From a virus (lineage: Duplodnaviria > Heunggongvirae > Uroviricota > Caudoviricetes), in the IMG/VR virus record IMGVR_UViG_2917849834_000006, positions 1 through 39,408 of that record: a stretch of 39,408 nt of DNA; one strand, written 5' to 3'. A program made the translations under genes and the position numbers. Shown here one piece after another: positions 386 through 28,300 of the stretch; position 1 is the first letter of the stretch; the number at the start of each line of letters is the position of its first letter. The notes under the pieces were generated by a model that worked only from the letters and a program-made list of their open reading frames with translations, was not told the origin of the DNA and did no database searches.

Positions 386-1609
386 ATGGCGCTGTCTGAT
401 GCGTGGTTGCGTTCAGTCGTTGGAAAGGAACGTGATAAGGTTTTGGTTAAATCCGATCGTGATGGTCTGTCTGTCAGAGTATCACCGAAAGGTCGCGTAG
501 TGTTCCAATATCGTTATCAATGGGCAGGGAAAGGTGAGCGCCTTGATATCGGAACTTACCCGGCAACTGGATTAAAAGAGGCCAGAGAAGAGGTTATCCG
601 TCTCCGTGGTGAACTCGAGTCAAACCGCAATCCACGATTAGTCAAGCAGGCTGAAAAACGAAAAGCTACTGAAGCCATGACGGTAGAGTCTGTGATCCGT
701 GCCTGGTATGAAGCATATTGTGTAAAAAATAAAAAAGGTTCTGAACAGATACTCCGCTCGTTTGAGCTGCACCTGTTCTCTAAAATCGGGAATATCCCTC
801 ACGATGCAGCTACATTGCATGATTGGTTAGAAGTCCTGGAGCCTCTTAGCACTAAGACTCCAGCAATAGCAGACCGATTGCTAATTAACGCAAAGCAGGC
901 CCATGTCTGGGCGTATAAGAGAAAGCTCATTGAAACTCGCCCGCTGTCGGATATCACGGGTAAAGATATGGATATCCGTAAAGGTCAGAAGAAACGGTTT
1001 CTGACACATGATGAAATTAAAATCCTTTATGCTGCGATCGATGGTTCTCGAATGGTTCCTAAATACCGGGCCTTCATTAAACTATTGCTGCATTTTGGCT
1101 GCCGTAGTTCAGAGCTAATTACCGCCAGGGTGGACGATTTTGATTTCATTAATAAAGTATGGACTGTACCACCAGAACGACATAAGACTGGGGAGATAAC
1201 AGGCGAACCGCTAAAGCGGCCCATTATTGAACCGGTTGAAGAGCTTATAAAGTACGCTATTTCTATGAACAATGGTTCCGATATGCTTTTTACTAAGGAA
1301 GGAAGCAGGGAACCCGTTGGTCGGACATCATTGCAGTCGCTGCCTTACAATTTAATGCAGTACGCATGGCGGCGTTTGGGGTATCAATTCCCTCATTGGT
1401 CTCTTCATGATTTGAGGCGAACAGCACGAACAAACTTTTCTGATCTTACTGCGCCTCATATTGCAGAAATAATGCTAGGTCATAAACTGCCAGGGGTATG
1501 GCAAGTTTATGACAAGAGCGATTATCTAGAAGAACAGCGTAAAGCCTACCAGGCATGGTGGGAGAGAGTTGAATCGATCGTTACTTGTACTAACTCAGAC
1601 ACCAACTGA
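386..1609 (+). CDS. int: Phage tyrosine integrase (P4-like family)
   Basis: 407-aa ORF with RBS; C-terminal catalytic region HDLRRTARTNF…LGHKLPGVWQVYDKSDY typical of tyrosine recombinases; position next to the host junction. Confidence 0.9.
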   Translation: MALSDAWLRSVVGKERDKVLVKSDRDGLSVRVSPKGRVVFQYRYQWAGKGERLDIGTYPATGLKEAREEVIRLRGELESNRNPRLVKQAEKRKATEAMTVESVIRAWYEAYCVKNKKGSEQILRSFELHLFSKIGNIPHDAATLHDWLEVLEPLSTKTPAIADRLLINAKQAHVWAYKRKLIETRPLSDITGKDMDIRKGQKKRFLTHDEIKILYAAIDGSRMVPKYRAFIKLLLHFGCRSSELITARVDDFDFINKVWTVPPERHKTGEITGEPLKRPIIEPVEELIKYAISMNNGSDMLFTKEGSREPVGRTSLQSLPYNLMQYAWRRLGYQFPHWSLHDLRRTARTNFSDLTAPHIAEIMLGHKLPGVWQVYDKSDYLEEQRKAYQAWWERVESIVTCTNSDTN

Positions 1610-3778: not shown

Positions 3779-4139
3779 TATGCTCAGCCTCCGGCGCTTT
3801 TGGCATTACTGCCCAGTGAGTGATATTGACGTTTTCAAGGTCCCCGACCTGAAATGTCCACTGCCATTCTCCGGTTTCTTTTTGCCCCCATGTGTACCAG
3901 AGAGAACGCCAGCCAATCAGCCAGCCTTCTCCGTTAGCATCAAATAACAGAACACTTTCATTTGCTGGTGGCAGTTCAGCTGACACTGGTATTATTTTGT
4001 TTTCCAGTGCCGCACATTTAGCTTCAAGCGCGTCGAATTTACGTACCAGGTACTCAGCATTTGTTTCGTTCACTTTCAGATCTCGCGGTACACATCTCCC
4101 ACGAAGAAACCCTTCCATTTCGAAAACATTCATGCGCAT
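3759..4139 (-). CDS. Hypothetical phage early protein (DUF551-like C-terminus)
   Basis: 126 aa; W-rich C-terminus …ITHWAVMPKAPE; overlapping, coupled with neighbours. Confidence 0.5.
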   Translation of the reverse strand: MRMNVFEMEGFLRGRCVPRDLKVNETNAEYLVRKFDALEAKCAALENKIIPVSAELPPANESVLLFDANGEGWLIGWRSLWYTWGQKETGEWQWTFQVGDLENVNITHWAVMPKAPEAEHNDHIYQ

Positions 4140-4666
4140 TTGCGTAACTCCGATAACTCGTTAAAACGTTCCATAAACATCCCGTAGGCATGGTCCGGTG
4201 CCAGTGGAATCACTTTGAACATATCTGTTGCCGGGATACCTTCCAGTACAGGCCAGAAAGAGCCATCATCAAGCCCGAGATCGCGGCGTTCGGTTGCCAG
4301 CATAATGAGATCGGCATATTTCACTGGCGTGCTCATAACCGGAGGTAACCCGTATTTCTCACGGATTACGGCGTCTATTTTTTCTTCCATCCGTTTATAG
4401 TCAGGAAGAAGGCGTTTCAGTGGTGCGGGGATGTCCTGGCAATACGCTTCTGTTGCATCATGCATTAACGCTTCAAAAGCAAATTCCTGATGCACCAGCT
4501 GGCTGCAAAGCACCGCATGTTGGGCGACGCTGTAGAAGTGAGAAAGATGACCGGCAAAGCGGCAGATATTTGAAAGGGAAACCGCGATATCGTTAATAAC
4601 GATGTCGTCTTTATTTATCTTGTCATAATAAAAATGCTTCCCGGAAAAAGTTTTAATAAATGACAT
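4130..4666 (-). CDS. HD-domain phosphohydrolase-like protein
   Basis: H…HD motif (AQHAVL…LMHDATEAY); likely start is the internal ATG at 4666 preceded by GGAG, rather than the track start at 4729. Confidence 0.6.
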   Translation of the reverse strand: MSFIKTFSGKHFYYDKINKDDIVINDIAVSLSNICRFAGHLSHFYSVAQHAVLCSQLVHQEFAFEALMHDATEAYCQDIPAPLKRLLPDYKRMEEKIDAVIREKYGLPPVMSTPVKYADLIMLATERRDLGLDDGSFWPVLEGIPATDMFKVIPLAPDHAYGMFMERFNELSELRKCA

Positions 4667-5337
4667 TTCGTTCTCCACTTTATATGCGCTGCACCGCGCT
4701 GAATTTTGGGAAAAGGAAGCCCTCACCATCCGGCGATTATTGAGTCAATTACGTTTCAATAGATGCCCCAGCAGGGGCGGTTAGTTTCTCCACAAAACAG
4801 AGAAGAACACCTGCGGTGACAGCCGCCCGGATGGATTGGGTTATGAGCCCGTCGTCCGGTGATGCTCTTCTCTGTTTTGTAAAAAGAGCGGTACCAGCCG
4901 GAAGCAATGGTACAAACTGATACCGCCAAGGCAGTGGCTGTTGTGGCGGGGTTGTCACTCAGGCGTATGGTCAGCCTGACAACCCGGTGTCCTCAACGGG
5001 GAAAGAGTAACCCCGCCATACTTACCGCCGCGCCATTTCGCGGATTACCACAACGCTGAGAGCACTTAGCCAGTTCGGCGCCACACTTTGTCTCGGCTCC
5101 ATAAATGCTCTTATCGTTGCACCCTGGTCTCTTCCCAGGCGTCAAACCGAATCGCCACGCTGGTTAGGCGTCTTATCAGCATCATCATTGACTTGCACAT
5201 TCCGGCTACCTGGTTTGTTTGCCCGAGCAAGGAGTGGATTGTCCCCTTTAACGTCTCCAGACCGCTAACGACGCATGTGCCATACGCCGTGTTACAACCA
5301 AACTTTGTTTGAATCTTGCCTGTTGCATGTTTCTTTT

Positions 5338-5371
5338 GGATACATTATGTATCCCAAGGGTACATTGTCAA
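5338..5371 (-). promoter_or_regulatory. Candidate leftward early promoter (PL-like) with overlapping operators
   Basis: Minus strand TTGACA (5371-5366), 16-nt spacer, CATAAT (5349-5344); 17-bp palindrome GGATACATTATGTATCC (5338-5354) and operator-like site TGTATCCCAAGGGTACA (5348-5364). Confidence 0.45.
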
Positions 5372-5398
5372 GTATAAAAAAACCTGCCGAAGCAGGTT
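5372..5398 (-). terminator. Rho-independent terminator downstream of the cI-like gene
   Basis: Minus-strand hairpin AACCTGC-ttcg-GCAGGTT followed by a T7 run, 13 nt after the cI stop. Confidence 0.6.
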
Positions 5399-5410
5399 CA
5401 TAAATATTGA

Positions 5411-6085
5411 TTAGGTCTTTATTTTGTATCTTCTTGGTTTTCCCGAGAAAATCACTGTACCAATTATAGAGCAATTACCGTTGATCTTAATGTAAGGTTC
5501 AGGCCAGTTTGGGTTTAATGCTTTGAGGTAACGCTGTGTTCCATCTTCTATCAACCGCTTGAAGGTGGTTTCGCCTGTATCGTGCATCAATGCAATAACG
5601 TCGTCACCGTGGCAGGCAGGGACTTCAGGATCAACAAAAATCATGTCTCCTGGGCGGTACTCATCAATCATTGAATCACCAATCACCCGCAAGATATAAG
5701 TCATTTCACCACAGGGTACAGGGCAGGGATAAGTTTCTGCTGTGCTCAAATCAACCTCAGAATAACCAACTTCTTTCCATGCTCCGGCCTGTACCCATGA
5801 TATGACAGGGACTAACGTTATTTGTTTGTTAGTGATTGAAACATCAGGTTTTTTTGTGATGTTCGTTGTCTGGTGTTCTTGATCAAGCCATCCGACAGGC
5901 AGGTCGAAACATTTTTCGATGTGCCGTGCCATGCTGTCACCGATATTTTTAGTTGCACCATCTCCCATAAACCTGCTGGTCTGGGTTGGCTCGCGATCAA
6001 TCATGGTGGCAAAGGAAGAATTCCCGCCAACACCATCTCTCAGTTTTCTGGCGTTAGACCGCCGGATGTCATGGACTGTTTTCAT
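5411..6085 (-). CDS. cI-like repressor with C-terminal S24 (LexA-like) autopeptidase domain
   Basis: 224 aa; N-terminal HTH region and C-terminal VIGDSMIDEYRPGDMIFVDPE S24 signature; divergent from the cro-like gene. Confidence 0.85.
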   Translation of the reverse strand: MKTVHDIRRSNARKLRDGVGGNSSFATMIDREPTQTSRFMGDGATKNIGDSMARHIEKCFDLPVGWLDQEHQTTNITKKPDVSITNKQITLVPVISWVQAGAWKEVGYSEVDLSTAETYPCPVPCGEMTYILRVIGDSMIDEYRPGDMIFVDPEVPACHGDDVIALMHDTGETTFKRLIEDGTQRYLKALNPNWPEPYIKINGNCSIIGTVIFSGKPRRYKIKT

Positions 6086-6100
6086 AATGAAATTAAAACC

Positions 6101-6169
6101 CTTGTACCGTTAAGGTACAAGTATCTTGAAGGTTCATTTTAATCATGTAATATGTACATCGGAGGTACA
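6101..6169. promoter_or_regulatory. OR-like operator/promoter region with two 17-bp operators (TGTACC-N5-GGTACA at 6103-6119; TGTACA-N5-GGTACA at 6153-6169)
   Basis: Perfect palindrome CTTGTACCGTTAAGGTACAAG at 6101-6121; second near-identical site overlapping the cro RBS; candidate rightward promoter TTGAAG (6126-6131), 16 nt, TAATAT (6148-6153). Confidence 0.6.
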
Positions 6170-6175
6170 TATTGT

Positions 6176-6376
6176 ATGAAAGCGTATTGGGACTCTTTAA
6201 CCAAAGAACAGCAGGGCGAGTTGGCCGGAAAAGTTGGCTCAACACCAGGCTACTTACGGCTGGTTTTCAATGGTTATAAAAAAGCCAGTTTTGTGCTGGC
6301 TAAAAAAATTGAGCAATGCACGTCAGGTGCAATTACGAAATCTGACTTAAGACCGGATATCTATCCGAAAGATTAA
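6176..6376 (+). CDS. Cro-like / YdaS-like HTH regulator
   Basis: Small basic protein divergent from cI; likely start is the ATG at 6176 after GGAGG, rather than the track start at 6152. Confidence 0.65.
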   Translation: MKAYWDSLTKEQQGELAGKVGSTPGYLRLVFNGYKKASFVLAKKIEQCTSGAITKSDLRPDIYPKD

Positions 6377-6407
6377 CAGAACACCTTCAATTTTTAACCA
6401 CAGAACG

Positions 6408-6971
6408 ATGAGGCTAACCGTGGGTAAGCATCACTGGAAAGTAGAAAAACAGCCTGAGTGGTACGTGAAAGCTGTCAGAAAAACTATCGCGGCATTGCCG
6501 GGGGGTTACGCTGAAGCTGCTGACTGGCTGGATGTAACAGAGAACGCATTATTTAACCGCCTTCGTGCCGATGGCGATCAGATTTTCCCGCTGGGATGGG
6601 CAATGATTTTACAGCGCGCGGCTGGCACTCACTACATTGCGGATGCTGTCGCACAGTCTGCTGGTGGGGTGTTTGTATCGCTTCCTGAAATTGAGGAAGT
6701 AGAGAACGCCGATATAAACCAGCGCCTGCTGGAAGTCATCGAACAGATCGGGAGTTACTCAAAGCAGATTCGTTCGGCAATCGAAGATGGGGTAGTGGAG
6801 CCACACGAGCAGACAGCAATTAATGATGAGTTGTATCTGTCAATTTCGAAGCTCCAGGAGCATGCAGCACTGGTCTACAAAATCTTTTGCGCTCCAGAAA
6901 AGAGTGACGCCCGCGAGTGTGCAGCTCCGGGCGTCGTGGCGTTTTGTGTCTGTGGAGAAACTAACGCATGA
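6408..6971 (+). CDS. CII-like regulatory protein (CP76/YdaT-like), tentative
   Basis: 187-aa ORF directly after cro; family assignment is from position and general resemblance only. Confidence 0.4.
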   Translation: MRLTVGKHHWKVEKQPEWYVKAVRKTIAALPGGYAEAADWLDVTENALFNRLRADGDQIFPLGWAMILQRAAGTHYIADAVAQSAGGVFVSLPEIEEVENADINQRLLEVIEQIGSYSKQIRSAIEDGVVEPHEQTAINDELYLSISKLQEHAALVYKIFCAPEKSDARECAAPGVVAFCVCGETNA

Positions 6972-7804
6972 ACAGTTTAACGGCAAATAATCGTTTGTCG
7001 CAACAGCTGGTGGTCAGTGTCGCTGAACACCTGTTGTTACGGCATGAATGCAGATTACCAAATCACCTGGCTGTAAGTAACCACAGAGAACTTTACCTGA
7101 CTGTGGGGGGCGAGTTGTGCAGGAACTTAACCGCTGGTTTCGTGACGGAAGAGGGCTTTATGTCCATGTTATTCGTTGGGAGCCAGAAACACAGCGCGTT
7201 ATCTATCTTCGCAAAGACTACCCGCATGAGTGCTTTAGTCCTTTGTGGAAATTCAGGCGTGATTTTGTTGAGTGTGAAGGACCACCAGCACATTGATTCT
7301 GCCATTCTGGGACGTTACACTGTTCAGGCACCTTATAAAGCGGGTGCCGGGATTGGCGTCCTGGAATTGCATACGGCGACAATTGGCGCGTTAGCGTCTT
7401 TTTTGTTGCTACAACTCAGCTATACCCAAATTATGGTGGGCTGGGTGGGGGCACCGAAAGGTGCGCCGGTTTCCGTATGCGCCGGTTACGCCAACCCTGC
7501 TCAGTTCACCACCAGCGAAATTGGCGTTTCCGGTGGTGGAAGTTATCCATTGCATACGGAGGCTGCCATCATGGCTACTGTCCCAGCCCTCTCTCGTCTG
7601 AATGATGACGACTTACATAAACTCAGTTATGTAACAACTGCACTACGTGCTCTGCGCAAGGTAACTCTTTCGGATCCGCAGGCGCATCAGGTTCTGGTAG
7701 AAACCCTTCTTAACTTGCAGGCTGAACGTATTCGTCTGGCGGATAAGGCTAATTTTCATATTCACCGTCTCCTTAATATCAGCGGAGGGCATCGTCATGC
7801 TTAA
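6968..7804 (+). CDS. Hypothetical protein (early right operon)
   Basis: 278-aa ORF with overlapping stop/start coupling; an alternative-frame protein-like ORF at about 7078-7260 leaves the reading frame in this segment uncertain. Confidence 0.4.
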   Translation: MNSLTANNRLSQQLVVSVAEHLLLRHECRLPNHLAVSNHRELYLTVGGELCRNLTAGFVTEEGFMSMLFVGSQKHSALSIFAKTTRMSALVLCGNSGVILLSVKDHQHIDSAILGRYTVQAPYKAGAGIGVLELHTATIGALASFLLLQLSYTQIMVGWVGAPKGAPVSVCAGYANPAQFTTSEIGVSGGGSYPLHTEAAIMATVPALSRLNDDDLHKLSYVTTALRALRKVTLSDPQAHQVLVETLLNLQAERIRLADKANFHIHRLLNISGGHRHA

Positions 7805-9339: not shown

Positions 9340-9992
9340 TGAGTAATAAATATTGCCAGGCGCTGGTGGAACTGCGGAACAAACCAGTCCATGAACTGAA
9401 GGAAGTGGGCGATCAGTGGCGCACGCCGGACAACATTTTCTGGGGAATTAACACCCTGTTTGGCCCGTTTGTTCTGGATCTGTTCACTGACGGTGATAAC
9501 GCCAAATGTGCTGCGTATTACACGGCGGAAGACAACGCGCTGGCGCATGACTGGTCAGAACGTCTTGCGGAGCTTAAAGGTGCTGCCTTTGGTAATCCCC
9601 CATACAGCCGCGCCAGTCAGCATGAGGGGCAATACATCACCGGCATGCGTTACATCATGAAACATGCCAGTGCCATGCGTGATAAGGGCGGGCGCTATGT
9701 TTTCCTGATCAAAGCTGCCACCAGCGAAGTGTGGTGGCCGGAAGATGCGGACCATATTGCTTTTATTCGCGGGCGTATTGGTTTTGAACTGCCTGCCTGG
9801 TTTATCCCGAAGGACGAGAAGCAGGTGCCGACAGGAGCGTTCTTCGCTGGTGCTATTGCTGTTTTCGACAAGACCTGGAAGGGACCGGCAATCAGCTACA
9901 TCGGGCGCGATGAACTTGAGGCATGTGGTGAGGCGTTTCTGGCGCAGGTTCGCCAGCAGGCGGAAAAACTGGTCAGGGAGATGGCGGCATGA
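9339..9992 (+). CDS. Phage DNA N6-adenine methyltransferase (Dam family)
   Basis: GNPPY motif (AFGNPPYS); likely start is the ATG at 9339 (TAATG overlap with the upstream stop). Confidence 0.8.
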   Translation: MSNKYCQALVELRNKPVHELKEVGDQWRTPDNIFWGINTLFGPFVLDLFTDGDNAKCAAYYTAEDNALAHDWSERLAELKGAAFGNPPYSRASQHEGQYITGMRYIMKHASAMRDKGGRYVFLIKAATSEVWWPEDADHIAFIRGRIGFELPAWFIPKDEKQVPTGAFFAGAIAVFDKTWKGPAISYIGRDELEACGEAFLAQVRQQAEKLVREMAA

Positions 9993-10315
9993 CGACGTTA
10001 ACTCAATGCCAGCAGCAGGTGCTGGATATGCTGATTTCTTATCAGAAAGAACGTGGCTTCCCGCCAACCAATCAGGAGGTGGCAACCATGCTGGGATACC
10101 GTTCGGTGAATGCAGCGGTGGAGCATCTTCGCTCACTGGAGAAAAAAGGCGTCATCACGATAAAGCGTGGTGTGGCCCGGGGGATAACGCTTCATACCGC
10201 GGTGAAGGACGACGACAGCGAGGCGGTCGAGATTATCCGATCACTGCTTGCCGGTGAGGAAAACGCCAGGCTGCGTGCAGCCTACTGGTTACATGAGAGG
10301 GGCCTGAAAGTATGA
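9989..10315 (+). CDS. LexA-type N-terminal DNA-binding domain protein
   Basis: 108 aa; winged-HTH resembling the LexA DNA-binding domain; no peptidase domain. Confidence 0.5.
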   Translation: MTTLTQCQQQVLDMLISYQKERGFPPTNQEVATMLGYRSVNAAVEHLRSLEKKGVITIKRGVARGITLHTAVKDDDSEAVEIIRSLLAGEENARLRAAYWLHERGLKV

Positions 10316-25303: not shown

Positions 25304-28300
25304 ATGGCGTCACTACGCGAACTGATTATAAAAATCTCGGCAAATTCGCAGTCATTCCAGTCAGAAATTGCGCGAGCTTCACGTATGGGACAGGAGTACT
25401 ACCGTACCATGCAGAACGGAGGTCGACAGTCTGCAGCTGCATCCCGTGATATGCGGCGAGCACTGGCAGAAGTGACCGAGCAGATAAATACGGCGAAGTC
25501 TTCGGCAATGAATATGGCTGGCGCATTTGCCGGTGCTTTTGCCACTGGACATCTTATATCTCTTGCGGATGAATGGAGCTCAGTAAATGCCCGTCTGAAG
25601 CAGGCCACGCAGTCCAGCGATGATTTCCAGGCATCACAGCGCGAATTAATGGCGATCAGCCAGAGAACGGGTACTGCTTTTGCTGATAACGCCAGTCTTT
25701 TTGCACGTTCGGCTTCTTCCATGCGGGAATATGGTTACAGATCTGAGGAAGTACTGAAAGTTACCGAGGCCATTTCTACAGGATTGAAATTGTCCGGAGC
25801 CAGTTCTGCGGAAGCCAGCTCGGTGATCACTCAGTTCAGCCAGGCACTGGCGCAAGGGGTTCTGCGCGGTGAAGAGTTTAATTCAGTAAATGAAAGCGGT
25901 GATCGTGTTATTCGTGCTCTGGCTGCAGGAATGGGGGTTGCCCGTAAAGATCTGAAGGCAATGGCGGATGATGGAAAGCTGACCGCCGATAAGGTTGTTC
26001 CTGCACTGATTAGCCAGCTTGGTACGCTGCGGGATGAATATGCAGCCATGCCTGATACCGTATCATCCTCTGCAACCAAAGTTGAAAACGCCTTTATGGC
26101 CTGGGTTGGTGGTGCGAATGATGCCAGCGGTGCAACGAAAACGCTTACCGGAATAATGAATGGTGTTGCGAATAATATTGATACGGTTGCCACGGCGGCG
26201 GGAGCTCTGGTTGCAATTGGTGTAGCCCGATATTTTGGCAATATGGCGTCTTCTGCGGGCTCTGCAACTGCCGGGTTAATTACTGCTGCCAGAAACGAAG
26301 TGGCTCTTGCTGAGGCACAGCTCAGAGGGACACAGATAGCAACAGCCAGAGCGCGGGCGGCATTGTATCGTGCGCAGCAGGCGGTTGTGGCTGCCCGTGG
26401 TACAGAAAAACAGGCTGCAGCAGAAGCGAAACTGGCAACCGCACAGGCTTCACTTACCCGTAATATTGCTGCCAGAACAGCGGCACAGGCAACGCTGAAT
26501 AACGTTACGTCAGTTAGTAGTCGGTTGTTAAGCGGTGCTCTGGGGCTGGTTGGTGGTGTGCCTGGACTTGTCATGCTGGGGGCGGCGGCCTGGTACACAA
26601 TGTATCAGAACCAGGAGCAGGCCAGAGAATCAGCGCGTCAGTATGCCGCAACAATCGATGAAATTCGCCAGAAAACGTCTGCAATGTCACTTCCTGAAGC
26701 GGCAGATAATGAGGAAAAGACGCGGCAGGCTCTGGAGGAGCAGAACAGGTTAATTGACGAGCAGAAAAGTAAGATTAAATCCTTACAGGAAAAAATTGCT
26801 GGCTATCAGTATGTCCTGGCAAACCCGGGCTGGACAACCGATAACGGTTTTATGATTAACCACATGACGTCGGTGAAAACTGTCACAGAAGGGCTTGCAG
26901 AAGCAACAAGTCAGCTGGCTGTTGAGCAGTCCCGACTTTCCGGAATGCAGGAAAAAGCCCAGTCAATCCAGGATGTGCTTGCCGGGCTGGAAGAACGACG
27001 AGTGGCGCTGATCCGCCAACAGGCAGCGGAACAAAACAAAGCATATCAGTCATTACTGATCATGAATGGCCAATATACCGAGTTTAATCGTCTTCTTGGG
27101 CTTGGTAATGAATTACTTCAGCAGCGACAGGGGCTGGTGAATGTACCGTTACGGCTGCCACAGGCTGCTCTGGATGATAAACAGCAGAACGCGCTGAATA
27201 ACACTGAGCGAGAGCTGACCTTATCCCGTCTGAAGGGGGAAGCGCGTGAGCGTACTCGTCTGGGCTATGTAGCGGATGATCTCGGTTTTGTGGGGGATGC
27301 CTATCAGACGGCAAGGCAAACTTATATCAACAACGCGCTGGAAGCATGGCGTAACAACCAGGCGAATAAGCCAAAGGTACGTGGTGGAAAATCGGAAGCA
27401 GAAAAAACGGAAGATGCTTATAACAGACTGATTAAACAACAAAAAGAACAAATAGCACTGGCAGGACAGAATACTGAACTGGCTAAGATGAAATACCAGG
27501 TCAGCCAGGGCGAATTATCAACCTTATCAGAAGCGCAGAAACAAACCCTTTTACAGAATGCAGCACTCATCGACCAGAAAAAAATTCGTGAGCAAATTGC
27601 TGCTTATGAAAGCAGCCTGGCGGACAGTAACGCCAGTGTCAGGGCATCAAATGAGGCTCAGTTGTTAGGGTATGGAGACGGAACACGAATACGTGAGCGG
27701 CTTCAGGAAATGTGGAACATCCGACAGGAGTTTGAGCAGAAAAATAATGAGTTGCTGAGACAGTACCAGACCGGAGAAATCGAAGAAGCCCTGTGGAAAC
27801 AGGAAAAAACGCTGAATGAAAAATATCTGGAGGAGCGTCTCAACGATCAGCAGGATTATTATGCAAAGGCCGATGCTTTACGCAGTAACTGGAATGCCGG
27901 GCTCAAAGAGGGGCTGACGAACTGGGCAGACAGTGCCACTGATTATTCTTCACAGGCGGCAGACGTGGTCGTTTCCACTATGGATGGTCTGGTTTCAAAT
28001 ATTTCCGAGGCACTGGCCGGAAACGTTGTGGACTGGAGAAACTGGGGGAGTTCGATCCTTCAGGAAGTTTCAAAAATCCTGATGAACGTGGCCATTGTTA
28101 ACGGGCTGAAATCACTCTCCGGGACAATGTCGGGAGCGGGGGGATGGATTGGTAGTGTTGGCGACTGGCTTTCCGGTGCAGTAGCGAACGCAAAAGGCGG
28201 TGTTTACACATCGGCAAATCTGAGTGCTTACAGTAACACCATTGTGGATACGCCGACGTACTTTGCTTTTGCGAAAGGTGCCGGGCTGATGGGGGAAGCC

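Follow-up and report, generated by a model that had tools for sequence, protein, structure and literature searches.

The control region analyzed here is of the immunity type that is known from the cryptic prophage e14 and from phage SfV. In e14, which is resident in Escherichia coli K-12, the repressor gene is ymfK and the cro gene is ymfT. YmfK has been listed as an SOS-sensitive repressor, and ymfM (sfiC), a gene of the e14 PR operon, has been reported to be inducible by RecA/SOS and not to be controlled by LexA. Based on dRNA-seq of K-12, a class I start of ymfK has been assigned to the first base of its start codon ATG (leader length 0), and the ymfK transcript is one of five in E. coli that were listed as leaderless (Romero et al., 2014; PMC4681348). 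For SfV, the GenBank record annotates a "putative operator region" at 26377-26445, and phages of the SfV type are described in the SfIV paper as being without homologues of N, cII and cIII. In the literature searched, the papers naming ymfK, ymfT or CroE give no binding sites, and no footprint, gel-shift, ChIP experiment or genetic operator mutant was found for a YmfK-type repressor. The six exact operator strings considered here also had no match in the literature searched.

Here, we analyze a stretch of 39,408 nucleotides, which is called the window below and always means the whole stretch. According to the ORF listing, the window carries open reading frames of terminase, portal, capsid and tail size, and therefore the prophage looks complete. 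A preliminary description, made from the sequence, had taken positions 5338-6169 for an immunity region with three operators and had supposed that it defines a specificity of this prophage. The operators are indeed there, but the specificity is not unique to this prophage, as it is that of the known e14/SfV type. The region 5338-6169, together with its flanks, is an ordinary control region for lysis versus lysogeny, belonging to a lambda-like prophage of E. coli, and its cI, cro and operator DNA are all near-identical to those of the e14/SfV immunity type.

In the stretch 5200-6400, the window shares 99.8% identity with many E. coli chromosomes whose annotation has ymfK/ymfT, 97.5% with cdtI, 97.3% with Stx2c-converting phages and Ayreon, and 96% with SfV and SfIV. 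The module is thus common to SfIV, cdtI, the Stx2c-converting phages and Ayreon, and occurs in 2H10 as well. At least 80% of the same query is present in 1,324 of 5,426 complete E. coli genomes, that is, in about a quarter of them. By tblastn, the repressor is 100% identical to SfV cI; the putative operator region of the SfV record corresponds exactly to 6102-6170 of the window, and the three core sites are shared by e14 of K-12, where they lie at 1202196, 1202951 and 1203001 (NC_000913.3). Compared with the e14/SfV-type elements, the operator centres differ by single bases, the right half of the weak operator on PL (OL2, see below) has ATACA where most relatives have GTACA, and left of 5314, in the PL leader, the window carries a mosaic module that differs from those of SfV and e14.

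Since the SfV record annotates the region and the genes are known in e14, both the element and the putative location of its operators were already public. The e14/SfV-type operators are therefore not novel, being known as putative annotation. What is added here is two weak sites, the registration of the promoters and a well-supported operator map for the e14 repressor. Such a map can serve to annotate prophages of this kind, to predict homo-immunity among them and to design binding and induction experiments, and it leaves the understanding of phage switches unchanged.

Gene layout and the repressor protein

The cI-like repressor gene (5411-6085, minus strand), identified as an ORF, encodes a protein of 224 aa, which corresponds to YmfK/CohE of e14 and cI of SfV. 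The cro-like gene (6176-6376, plus strand), identified by its ORF and a domain search, encodes a 66-aa protein of the YdaS-type HTH, corresponding to YmfT/CroE. Its counterpart is labelled cro in SfV and cdtI, and ymfT in E. coli. The two genes are divergent and 90 bp apart, which is the arrangement of a lambdoid immunity region. They are followed on the plus strand by the second gene of the PR operon (6408-6971), whose product is a cII-like regulator of the Phage_CP76 family (Pfam PF06892, E = 1.4e-14) that corresponds to YmfL. For cI itself, a terminator scan detected an intrinsic terminator at 5380-5399 on the minus strand, which is also annotated in SfV and Ayreon and whose stem shows compensatory changes across relatives in the anchored alignments. 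An Rfam search over 4650-5420 returned no family.

The CI protein is composed of an N-terminal HTH domain (residues 1-71) and a C-terminal S24 autoprotease domain; the latter, already proposed in the preliminary description, is confirmed by the Pfam match (Peptidase_S24, E = 1.5e-26). The residues Ala100-Gly101 (VQAG), Ser138 (GDSM) and Lys176 (FKRL) align with A111-G112, S149 and K192 of lambda, and the C-terminal domain matches the structures of the lambda cI C-terminal domain, UmuD and LexA in the PDB. For the N-terminal domain, only weak matches to HTH repressors were obtained (5d50, E = 0.003), and a protein search in which this domain (75 aa) served as the query yielded nothing but pieces of the same protein. 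An HTH joined to a LexA/S24 autoprotease domain that holds the Ala-Gly, Ser and Lys residues is what would be expected of a repressor of this kind. The self-cleavage of CI would be stimulated by RecA, and the prophage is probably SOS-inducible via its S24 repressor.

Probable operators and promoters around cI

All three of the 17-bp sites that had been proposed, with the pattern TGTAYC-N5-GGTACA, are present, at 5348-5364, 6103-6119 and 6153-6169. Exactly three matches to the core TGTAY-N7-RTACA are present in the 39,408 bases, where about 0.1 (0.11-0.16) are expected, and all three are located within 822 bp around cI. When no more than one mismatch to the full pattern is allowed, every match in the window falls at these three sites; when no more than two are allowed, the window contains 11 strand-hits, with 3.4 expected. 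Two weak sites, at 5328-5344 and 6120-6136, both surfaced at the level of two mismatches. Repeated two-fold symmetric operators are thus located over PR, PRM and PL, with five sites in all (three strong and two weak), and no other repeated palindrome was seen in the two control regions. From the comparison with relatives (see below), it is very likely that the three sites and their weak partners are CI/Cro operators, and the repressor would bind physically at these 17-bp sites.

The OR3-like operator TGTACCGTTAAGGTACA (6103-6119), identified by the sequence itself and the pattern search, is a perfect palindrome, which extends to 21 bp at 6101-6121 (CTTGTACC-GTTAA-GGTACAAG). It overlaps the -35 hexamer and the spacer of PRM, and its centre is at -26 from the PRM start. 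PRM (6085-6120, minus strand) is composed of the -35 hexamer TTGTAC (6120-6115), a 17-nt spacer, the -10 hexamer TTTAAT (6097-6092) and a start at 6085. These elements were placed in this register because the ymfK transcript of e14 begins at the ATG; one base differs between the window and e14 in the PRM stretch. Among the relatives, the -35 hexamer is invariant and a TnTAAT hexamer is kept 6 nt before the cI ATG, and it should be noted that the usual A at position 2 of the -10 hexamer is absent in most of them. An alternative -10 hexamer, TAAAAT at 6141-6136, was dropped, since the mapped e14 start is the ATG.

On the cro side, PR (6126-6153, plus strand) is predicted to consist of the -35 hexamer TTGAAG (6126-6131), a 16-nt spacer and the -10 hexamer TAATAT (6148-6153), with a start at about 6160. 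It was placed by direct reading of the sequence; it scores 8/12 against the sigma-70 consensus and lies below the threshold of the consensus scanner. In the alignment of the relatives, the conserved columns CTTg and tGtA..aT fit PR as TTGnnG and TAnnAT, which is consistent with the hexamers as read. The OR1-like operator TGTACATCGGAGGTACA (6153-6169), identified in the same way as the OR3-like one, has one mismatch to the consensus, at position 6. Its first base is also the final one of the PR -10 hexamer, and it spans the predicted PR start and holds the cro Shine-Dalgarno sequence GGAGG.

The two operators that had been described between cI and cro are therefore both there, but they are accompanied by a third, weak and conserved, site. 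This OR2-like operator AGTATCTTGAAGGTTCA (6120-6136), recognized by a two-mismatch match and by its conservation, lies over the PR -35 hexamer and directly abuts the OR3 palindrome, with its centre at -43 from the PRM start. Consequently, as far as the conservation goes, OR most likely has three sites rather than two.

On the other side of cI, a consensus scan placed PL on the minus strand (5344-5371), with TTGACA (5371-5366), a 16-nt spacer, CATAAT (5349-5344) and a predicted start at about 5337; the match to the sigma-70 consensus is 11/12. The record of phage Ayreon has a promoter annotated at the PL position and a terminator left of cI. As the preliminary description had claimed, one operator lies on PL: OL1, TGTATCCCAAGGGTACA (5348-5364), is located between the -35 and -10 hexamers. 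A weak operator, OL2, TGTTTCTTTTGGATACA (5328-5344), lies over the PL start region at a distance of 3 bp from OL1, and it is most likely, based on the sequence comparison, that OL has two sites. The palindrome GGATACATTATGTATCC, which had been regarded as a neighbour of the operator, does occur beside OL1 at 5338-5354, but it does not stand as an element in its own right: it marks the junction of OL2 and OL1, where the right half of OL2 is followed by 3 bp and then by the left half of OL1, and the PL -10 hexamer lies within it. In the accessible part of the supplement of Romero et al. (2014; PMC4681348), there are no starts near the predicted PR and PL, as would be expected if both promoters are repressed in the lysogen.

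How does this arrangement compare with that of lambda? In common with lambda, the locus has divergent cI and cro genes, 17-bp operators with two-fold symmetry, what is most likely a tripartite OR, and OL on PL. The CI protein likewise has an N-terminal HTH domain and a C-terminal S24 domain with Ala-Gly, Ser and Lys, and the cI mRNA from PRM is leaderless. The centre of the middle OR site is at -43 from PRM, compared with -42 for lambda OR2. Unlike in lambda, OR1 contains the cro ribosome-binding site, OL has two sites instead of three, the rex genes are absent and Cro is a YdaS-type HTH protein; in addition, neither the operators nor the N-terminal domain have sequence similarity to those of lambda. 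The OR3 and OR2 centres are separated by 17 bp, so that the two sites abut, and the OR2 and OR1 centres by 33 bp, whereas the spacing is 23-24 bp in lambda. Because OR3 and OR2 abut at 17 bp instead of 23-24 bp between centres, the cooperativity scheme of lambda is not simply transferable. The site closest to the consensus, which is predicted to be the strongest, is located on PRM instead of PR, the reverse of the affinity order of lambda CI.

Conservation of the sites among relatives

A scan of species-representative genomes yielded cI homologues that are 73-88% identical, from 17 genera of Enterobacterales, and the control regions of these genomic relatives were aligned by anchoring on the sites. 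Among the 17 genomic relatives, the half-sites and the promoter hexamers are kept, while the remaining intergenic columns diverge. For the window and these 17 relatives together, the OR3 half-sites are unchanged in 16 of the 18 sequences and the central 5 nt vary freely, and all 18 share the OR2 half GGTTCA, which reads TGAACC on the opposite strand. In the anchored alignments, OR1 keeps TGTAY and GTACA, and the cro Shine-Dalgarno sequence, which forms the centre of this site, is fixed. The OL1 half-sites TGTACC/GGTACA are invariant in nearly all relatives, with the five central bases free, and neither of the PL hexamers (TTGACA, CATAAT) varies. At OL2, the right half GGTACA is kept in 16 of the 17 genomic relatives, the remaining one (L020) having GAGTACA; the window itself has GGATACA at this half. 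The operator arms show no compensatory changes and are simply invariant.

Beyond the Enterobacterales, phage loci in IMG/VR were compared. The first IMG/VR scan returned identical E. coli copies only, and a scan led by the Pseudomonas domain gave 80 loci with 38-60% GC. The 54 distinct relatives compared, from Enterobacterales to Pseudomonas phages and covering 38-60% GC, all have the same recognition helix, and they exhibit invariant half-sites, free centres and fixed spacing. An OR1-like site was found in every one of them (54/54). At OR2, the distal half is TGAACC in 33 of the 54, the perfect TGTACC in 5 and TGTACC shifted by 1 nt in 15, while the other half is degenerate. At the OL2 position, 20 bp from OL1, a core match with no more than one mismatch is present in six distinct relatives.

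For 49 distinct site-sets from the IMG/VR and genome loci, 144 sites with no more than one mismatch were counted in 140.5 kb, compared with 4.3 expected. Successive sites are separated by 50-51 bp (46 cases), by 20 bp (6 cases) or, across cI, by about 755 bp; the first of these is the distance of OR1 from the cI-proximal site, which is thus fixed in 46 of the 49 site-sets. At positions 6 and 12, 89% of the 144 sites have C and G, respectively. Since these positions were not used in selecting the sites, their constancy supports a half-site of six bases, and the matrix derived from the 144 sites reads TGTAC(C)-N5-(G)GTACA.

For example, the repressor of Pseudomonas phage vB_Pae_CF60a (263 aa in total) is 58% identical to CI over its first 71 residues, with the recognition helix IDREPTQVSR, compared with IDREPTQTSR in CI. 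The C-terminal domains of the two repressors are unrelated, their cro-like neighbours share 32% identity, and the CF60a locus is without nucleotide homology to the window. The 88-bp control region of CF60a carries TGTACCTCCTGGGTACA, TGTACCGTCAAGGTTCT and TGTACATTTCTGGTACA, whose order and spacing match those in the window. CF60a and related IMG/VR contigs, with 56-60% GC, have the same TGTACC-N5-GGTACA sites in the same strong/weak/strong layout. Two differences should be noted: in CF60a, the middle site overlaps the cI-proximal one by 1 nt, and downstream of the repressor gene, the palindrome CTGTATATACAG is present instead of a further copy of any of the three sites.

Proposed switch and alternative readings

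We consider it highly probable that the locus is a lambdoid switch of the e14/SfV immunity type, with TGTACC-N5-GGTACA operators bound by CI and Cro and with RecA-triggered cleavage of CI. CI dimers, and most likely Cro dimers too, would recognise TGTACC-N5-GGTACA via the HTH helix that contains IDREPTQTSR. CI bound at OR1, OR2, OL1 and OL2 would block PR and PL, where OL1 between the PL hexamers and the weaker OL2 over the PL start would jointly shut off leftward transcription. The OR2 site at -43 may in addition help PRM. OR3, located on PRM, would serve for negative autoregulation at high CI, and Cro bound there would turn cI down. After DNA damage, activated RecA (RecA*) would induce the self-cleavage of CI at Ala100-Gly101 via Ser138 and Lys176, and PR and PL would be freed. 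Both the site preference of CI versus Cro and the activation of PRM from OR2 are what we infer from the arrangement.

A more far-reaching reading, which we regard as possible but doubtful, is that the e14/SfV-type switch uses a logic unlike that of lambda, with one operator specificity across genera. The geometry behind it is that of a perfect site at -26 on PRM with an abutting site at -43, of which one half is conserved, and with the PR operator, which holds the cro ribosome-binding site, another 33 bp away. The OR geometry and TGTACC-N5-GGTACA are kept from Enterobacterales to Pseudomonas phages, despite the exchanged C-terminal domain of the repressor. If this reading were true, cooperativity and exclusion would be distinct from those of lambda, e.g., OR3 and OR2 might be occupied in a mutually exclusive manner, and a single immunity specificity would be common to several genera. 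The latter would be unusual, because lambdoid immunity regions usually diversify.

Then, in the lambdoid switch proposed above, could Cro alone occupy the sites, or some other regulator of the phage (the CP76-type cII-like protein, for example), with CI acting elsewhere? A homologue of cro accompanies the sites even in CF60a, at 32% identity, and since both genes travel with the sites, the comparison does not separate binding by CI from binding by Cro. However, the sites follow the recognition helix of CI despite the exchange of its C-terminal domain. The same is true when the helix changes: phage Lodos, whose repressor belongs to the same domain family and has another recognition helix, shows TTAACC-N5-GGTTAA, that is, an equal geometry with a changed half-site. 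Ralstonia phage Hennie, whose N-terminal domain is 41% identical and has a different helix, has no TGTAC sites and gives no information on this point. Moreover, one of the sites is on PL, 700 bp from cro, where the lysogenic repressor must act, and the two control regions are without any other repeated palindrome. Binding by Cro or another regulator alone is therefore improbable.

Still less probable is that the palindromes work at the level of RNA (as a hairpin, attenuator or terminator) and not as DNA to which a protein binds. On the minus strand, 6121-6101 does look like a terminator to the scanner, with CTTGTACC-TTAAC-GGTACAAG followed by GGTTTTAATTT, which gives 8 pairs and a T-rich tail, and a variable loop with a conserved stem would also be expected of a hairpin. 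However, the cI transcript of e14 starts at the ATG, further downstream, so the palindrome lies outside the PRM RNA and is not an intrinsic terminator within a transcript. Similarly, the OR1 palindrome would not be transcribed whole, because the predicted PR start lies inside it. The stems of the operators are also free of compensatory changes, whereas the genuine cI terminator at 5380-5399 covaries. In addition, the same half-sites recur with other centres and in other contexts, and at OR2 one half alone is conserved.

The CRP box is TGTGA-N6-TCACA and the TyrR box is TGTAAA-N6-TTTACA. Despite a superficial likeness of the sites to both, boxes of such host transcription factors, or chance palindromes, have a negligible probability, since the sites have TGTA-N9-TACA instead of the N10 of TyrR and TGTAC instead of the TGTGA of CRP, are found nowhere but next to cI, in hosts ranging from Pseudomonas to Enterobacterales, and would be expected by chance about 0.1 times per window. 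The 144-site matrix differs from the CRP and TyrR boxes in half-site as well as in spacing.

PR operon: a candidate second immunity module based on RNA

Two matches to known RNA families were found on the plus strand, both with scores above the Rfam gathering score: one to the Hfq-binding RNA isrK at 7328-7404 (61 bits), and the other to the C4 antisense RNA of the P1/P7 immI region at 7429-7516 (81 bits). Both are enclosed by the ORF at 6968-7804, whose counterpart in Shigella phage SfV, orf37, is labelled 'immunity region'. Taken together, the two matches and this label suggest that a second immunity module, RNA-based, may be carried in the PR operon of the prophage. In addition, residues 117-209 of the ORF product match the Pfam family Phage_ASH, and this stretch coincides with the isrK and C4 matches; judging from this overlap, the 'Ash' ORF may be in part a translation of RNA genes.

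The region downstream of PL

On the minus strand, about 600 nt (4730-5337) separate the predicted PL start from the next leftward gene (4130-4729), and neither a convincing ORF nor an Rfam match was found in this region. Compared with shuffled controls, the region folds much more stably (z = -4.7), and one long hairpin within it is near-perfect, its arms lying at 4792-4809 and 4863-4880. The region is a mosaic of unannotated blocks, which are common to cdtI, Stx2c phages, mEp460, SPN1S, and even P1, SJ46 and D6. Possible readings of the region are a structured leader and a non-coding RNA.

Many of the relatives' loci compared (L004-L021) have a conserved element in common about 20-90 bp downstream of PL, in which the transcribed strand reads GGCAGGACGCCCACGAAGTAGCCGCC and a hairpin comes next, as exemplified in E. 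coli K-12 (NC_000913.3, about 1202100-1202180). The window left of 5314 is not among the sequences sharing it. The hairpin stem shows a compensatory change, CCGGT/ACCGG versus CCCCA/TGGGG in one relative (L009). Such an element could be an RNA signal, for example an antitermination site; N has been reported to be absent from these phages.

In the Pseudomonas phage vB_Pae_CF60a, the palindrome CTGTATATACA(G/A) occurs twice downstream of the repressor gene (at 2328-2340 and 2363-2375 of the compared locus, L003), in the place taken by OL in the enterobacterial relatives. Each copy consists of TGTAT/ATACA half-sites without a spacer.

Integration module and a LexA-like ORF

The integrase gene (386-1609, plus strand) points into the prophage, its direction of transcription being the reverse of that of the PL operon, whereas in the cryptic prophage e14 intE and xisE have the same orientation as the repressor gene ymfK. 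Therefore, the integration module is a mosaic piece different from that of e14.

The ORF at 9989-10315 (plus strand) encodes 108 aa whose resemblance to LexA is confined to the N-terminal DNA-binding domain, with the cleavage/protease domain absent, and its product could be a non-cleavable LexA mimic. Its counterpart in a related prophage is annotated as 'LexA family transcriptional regulator'.
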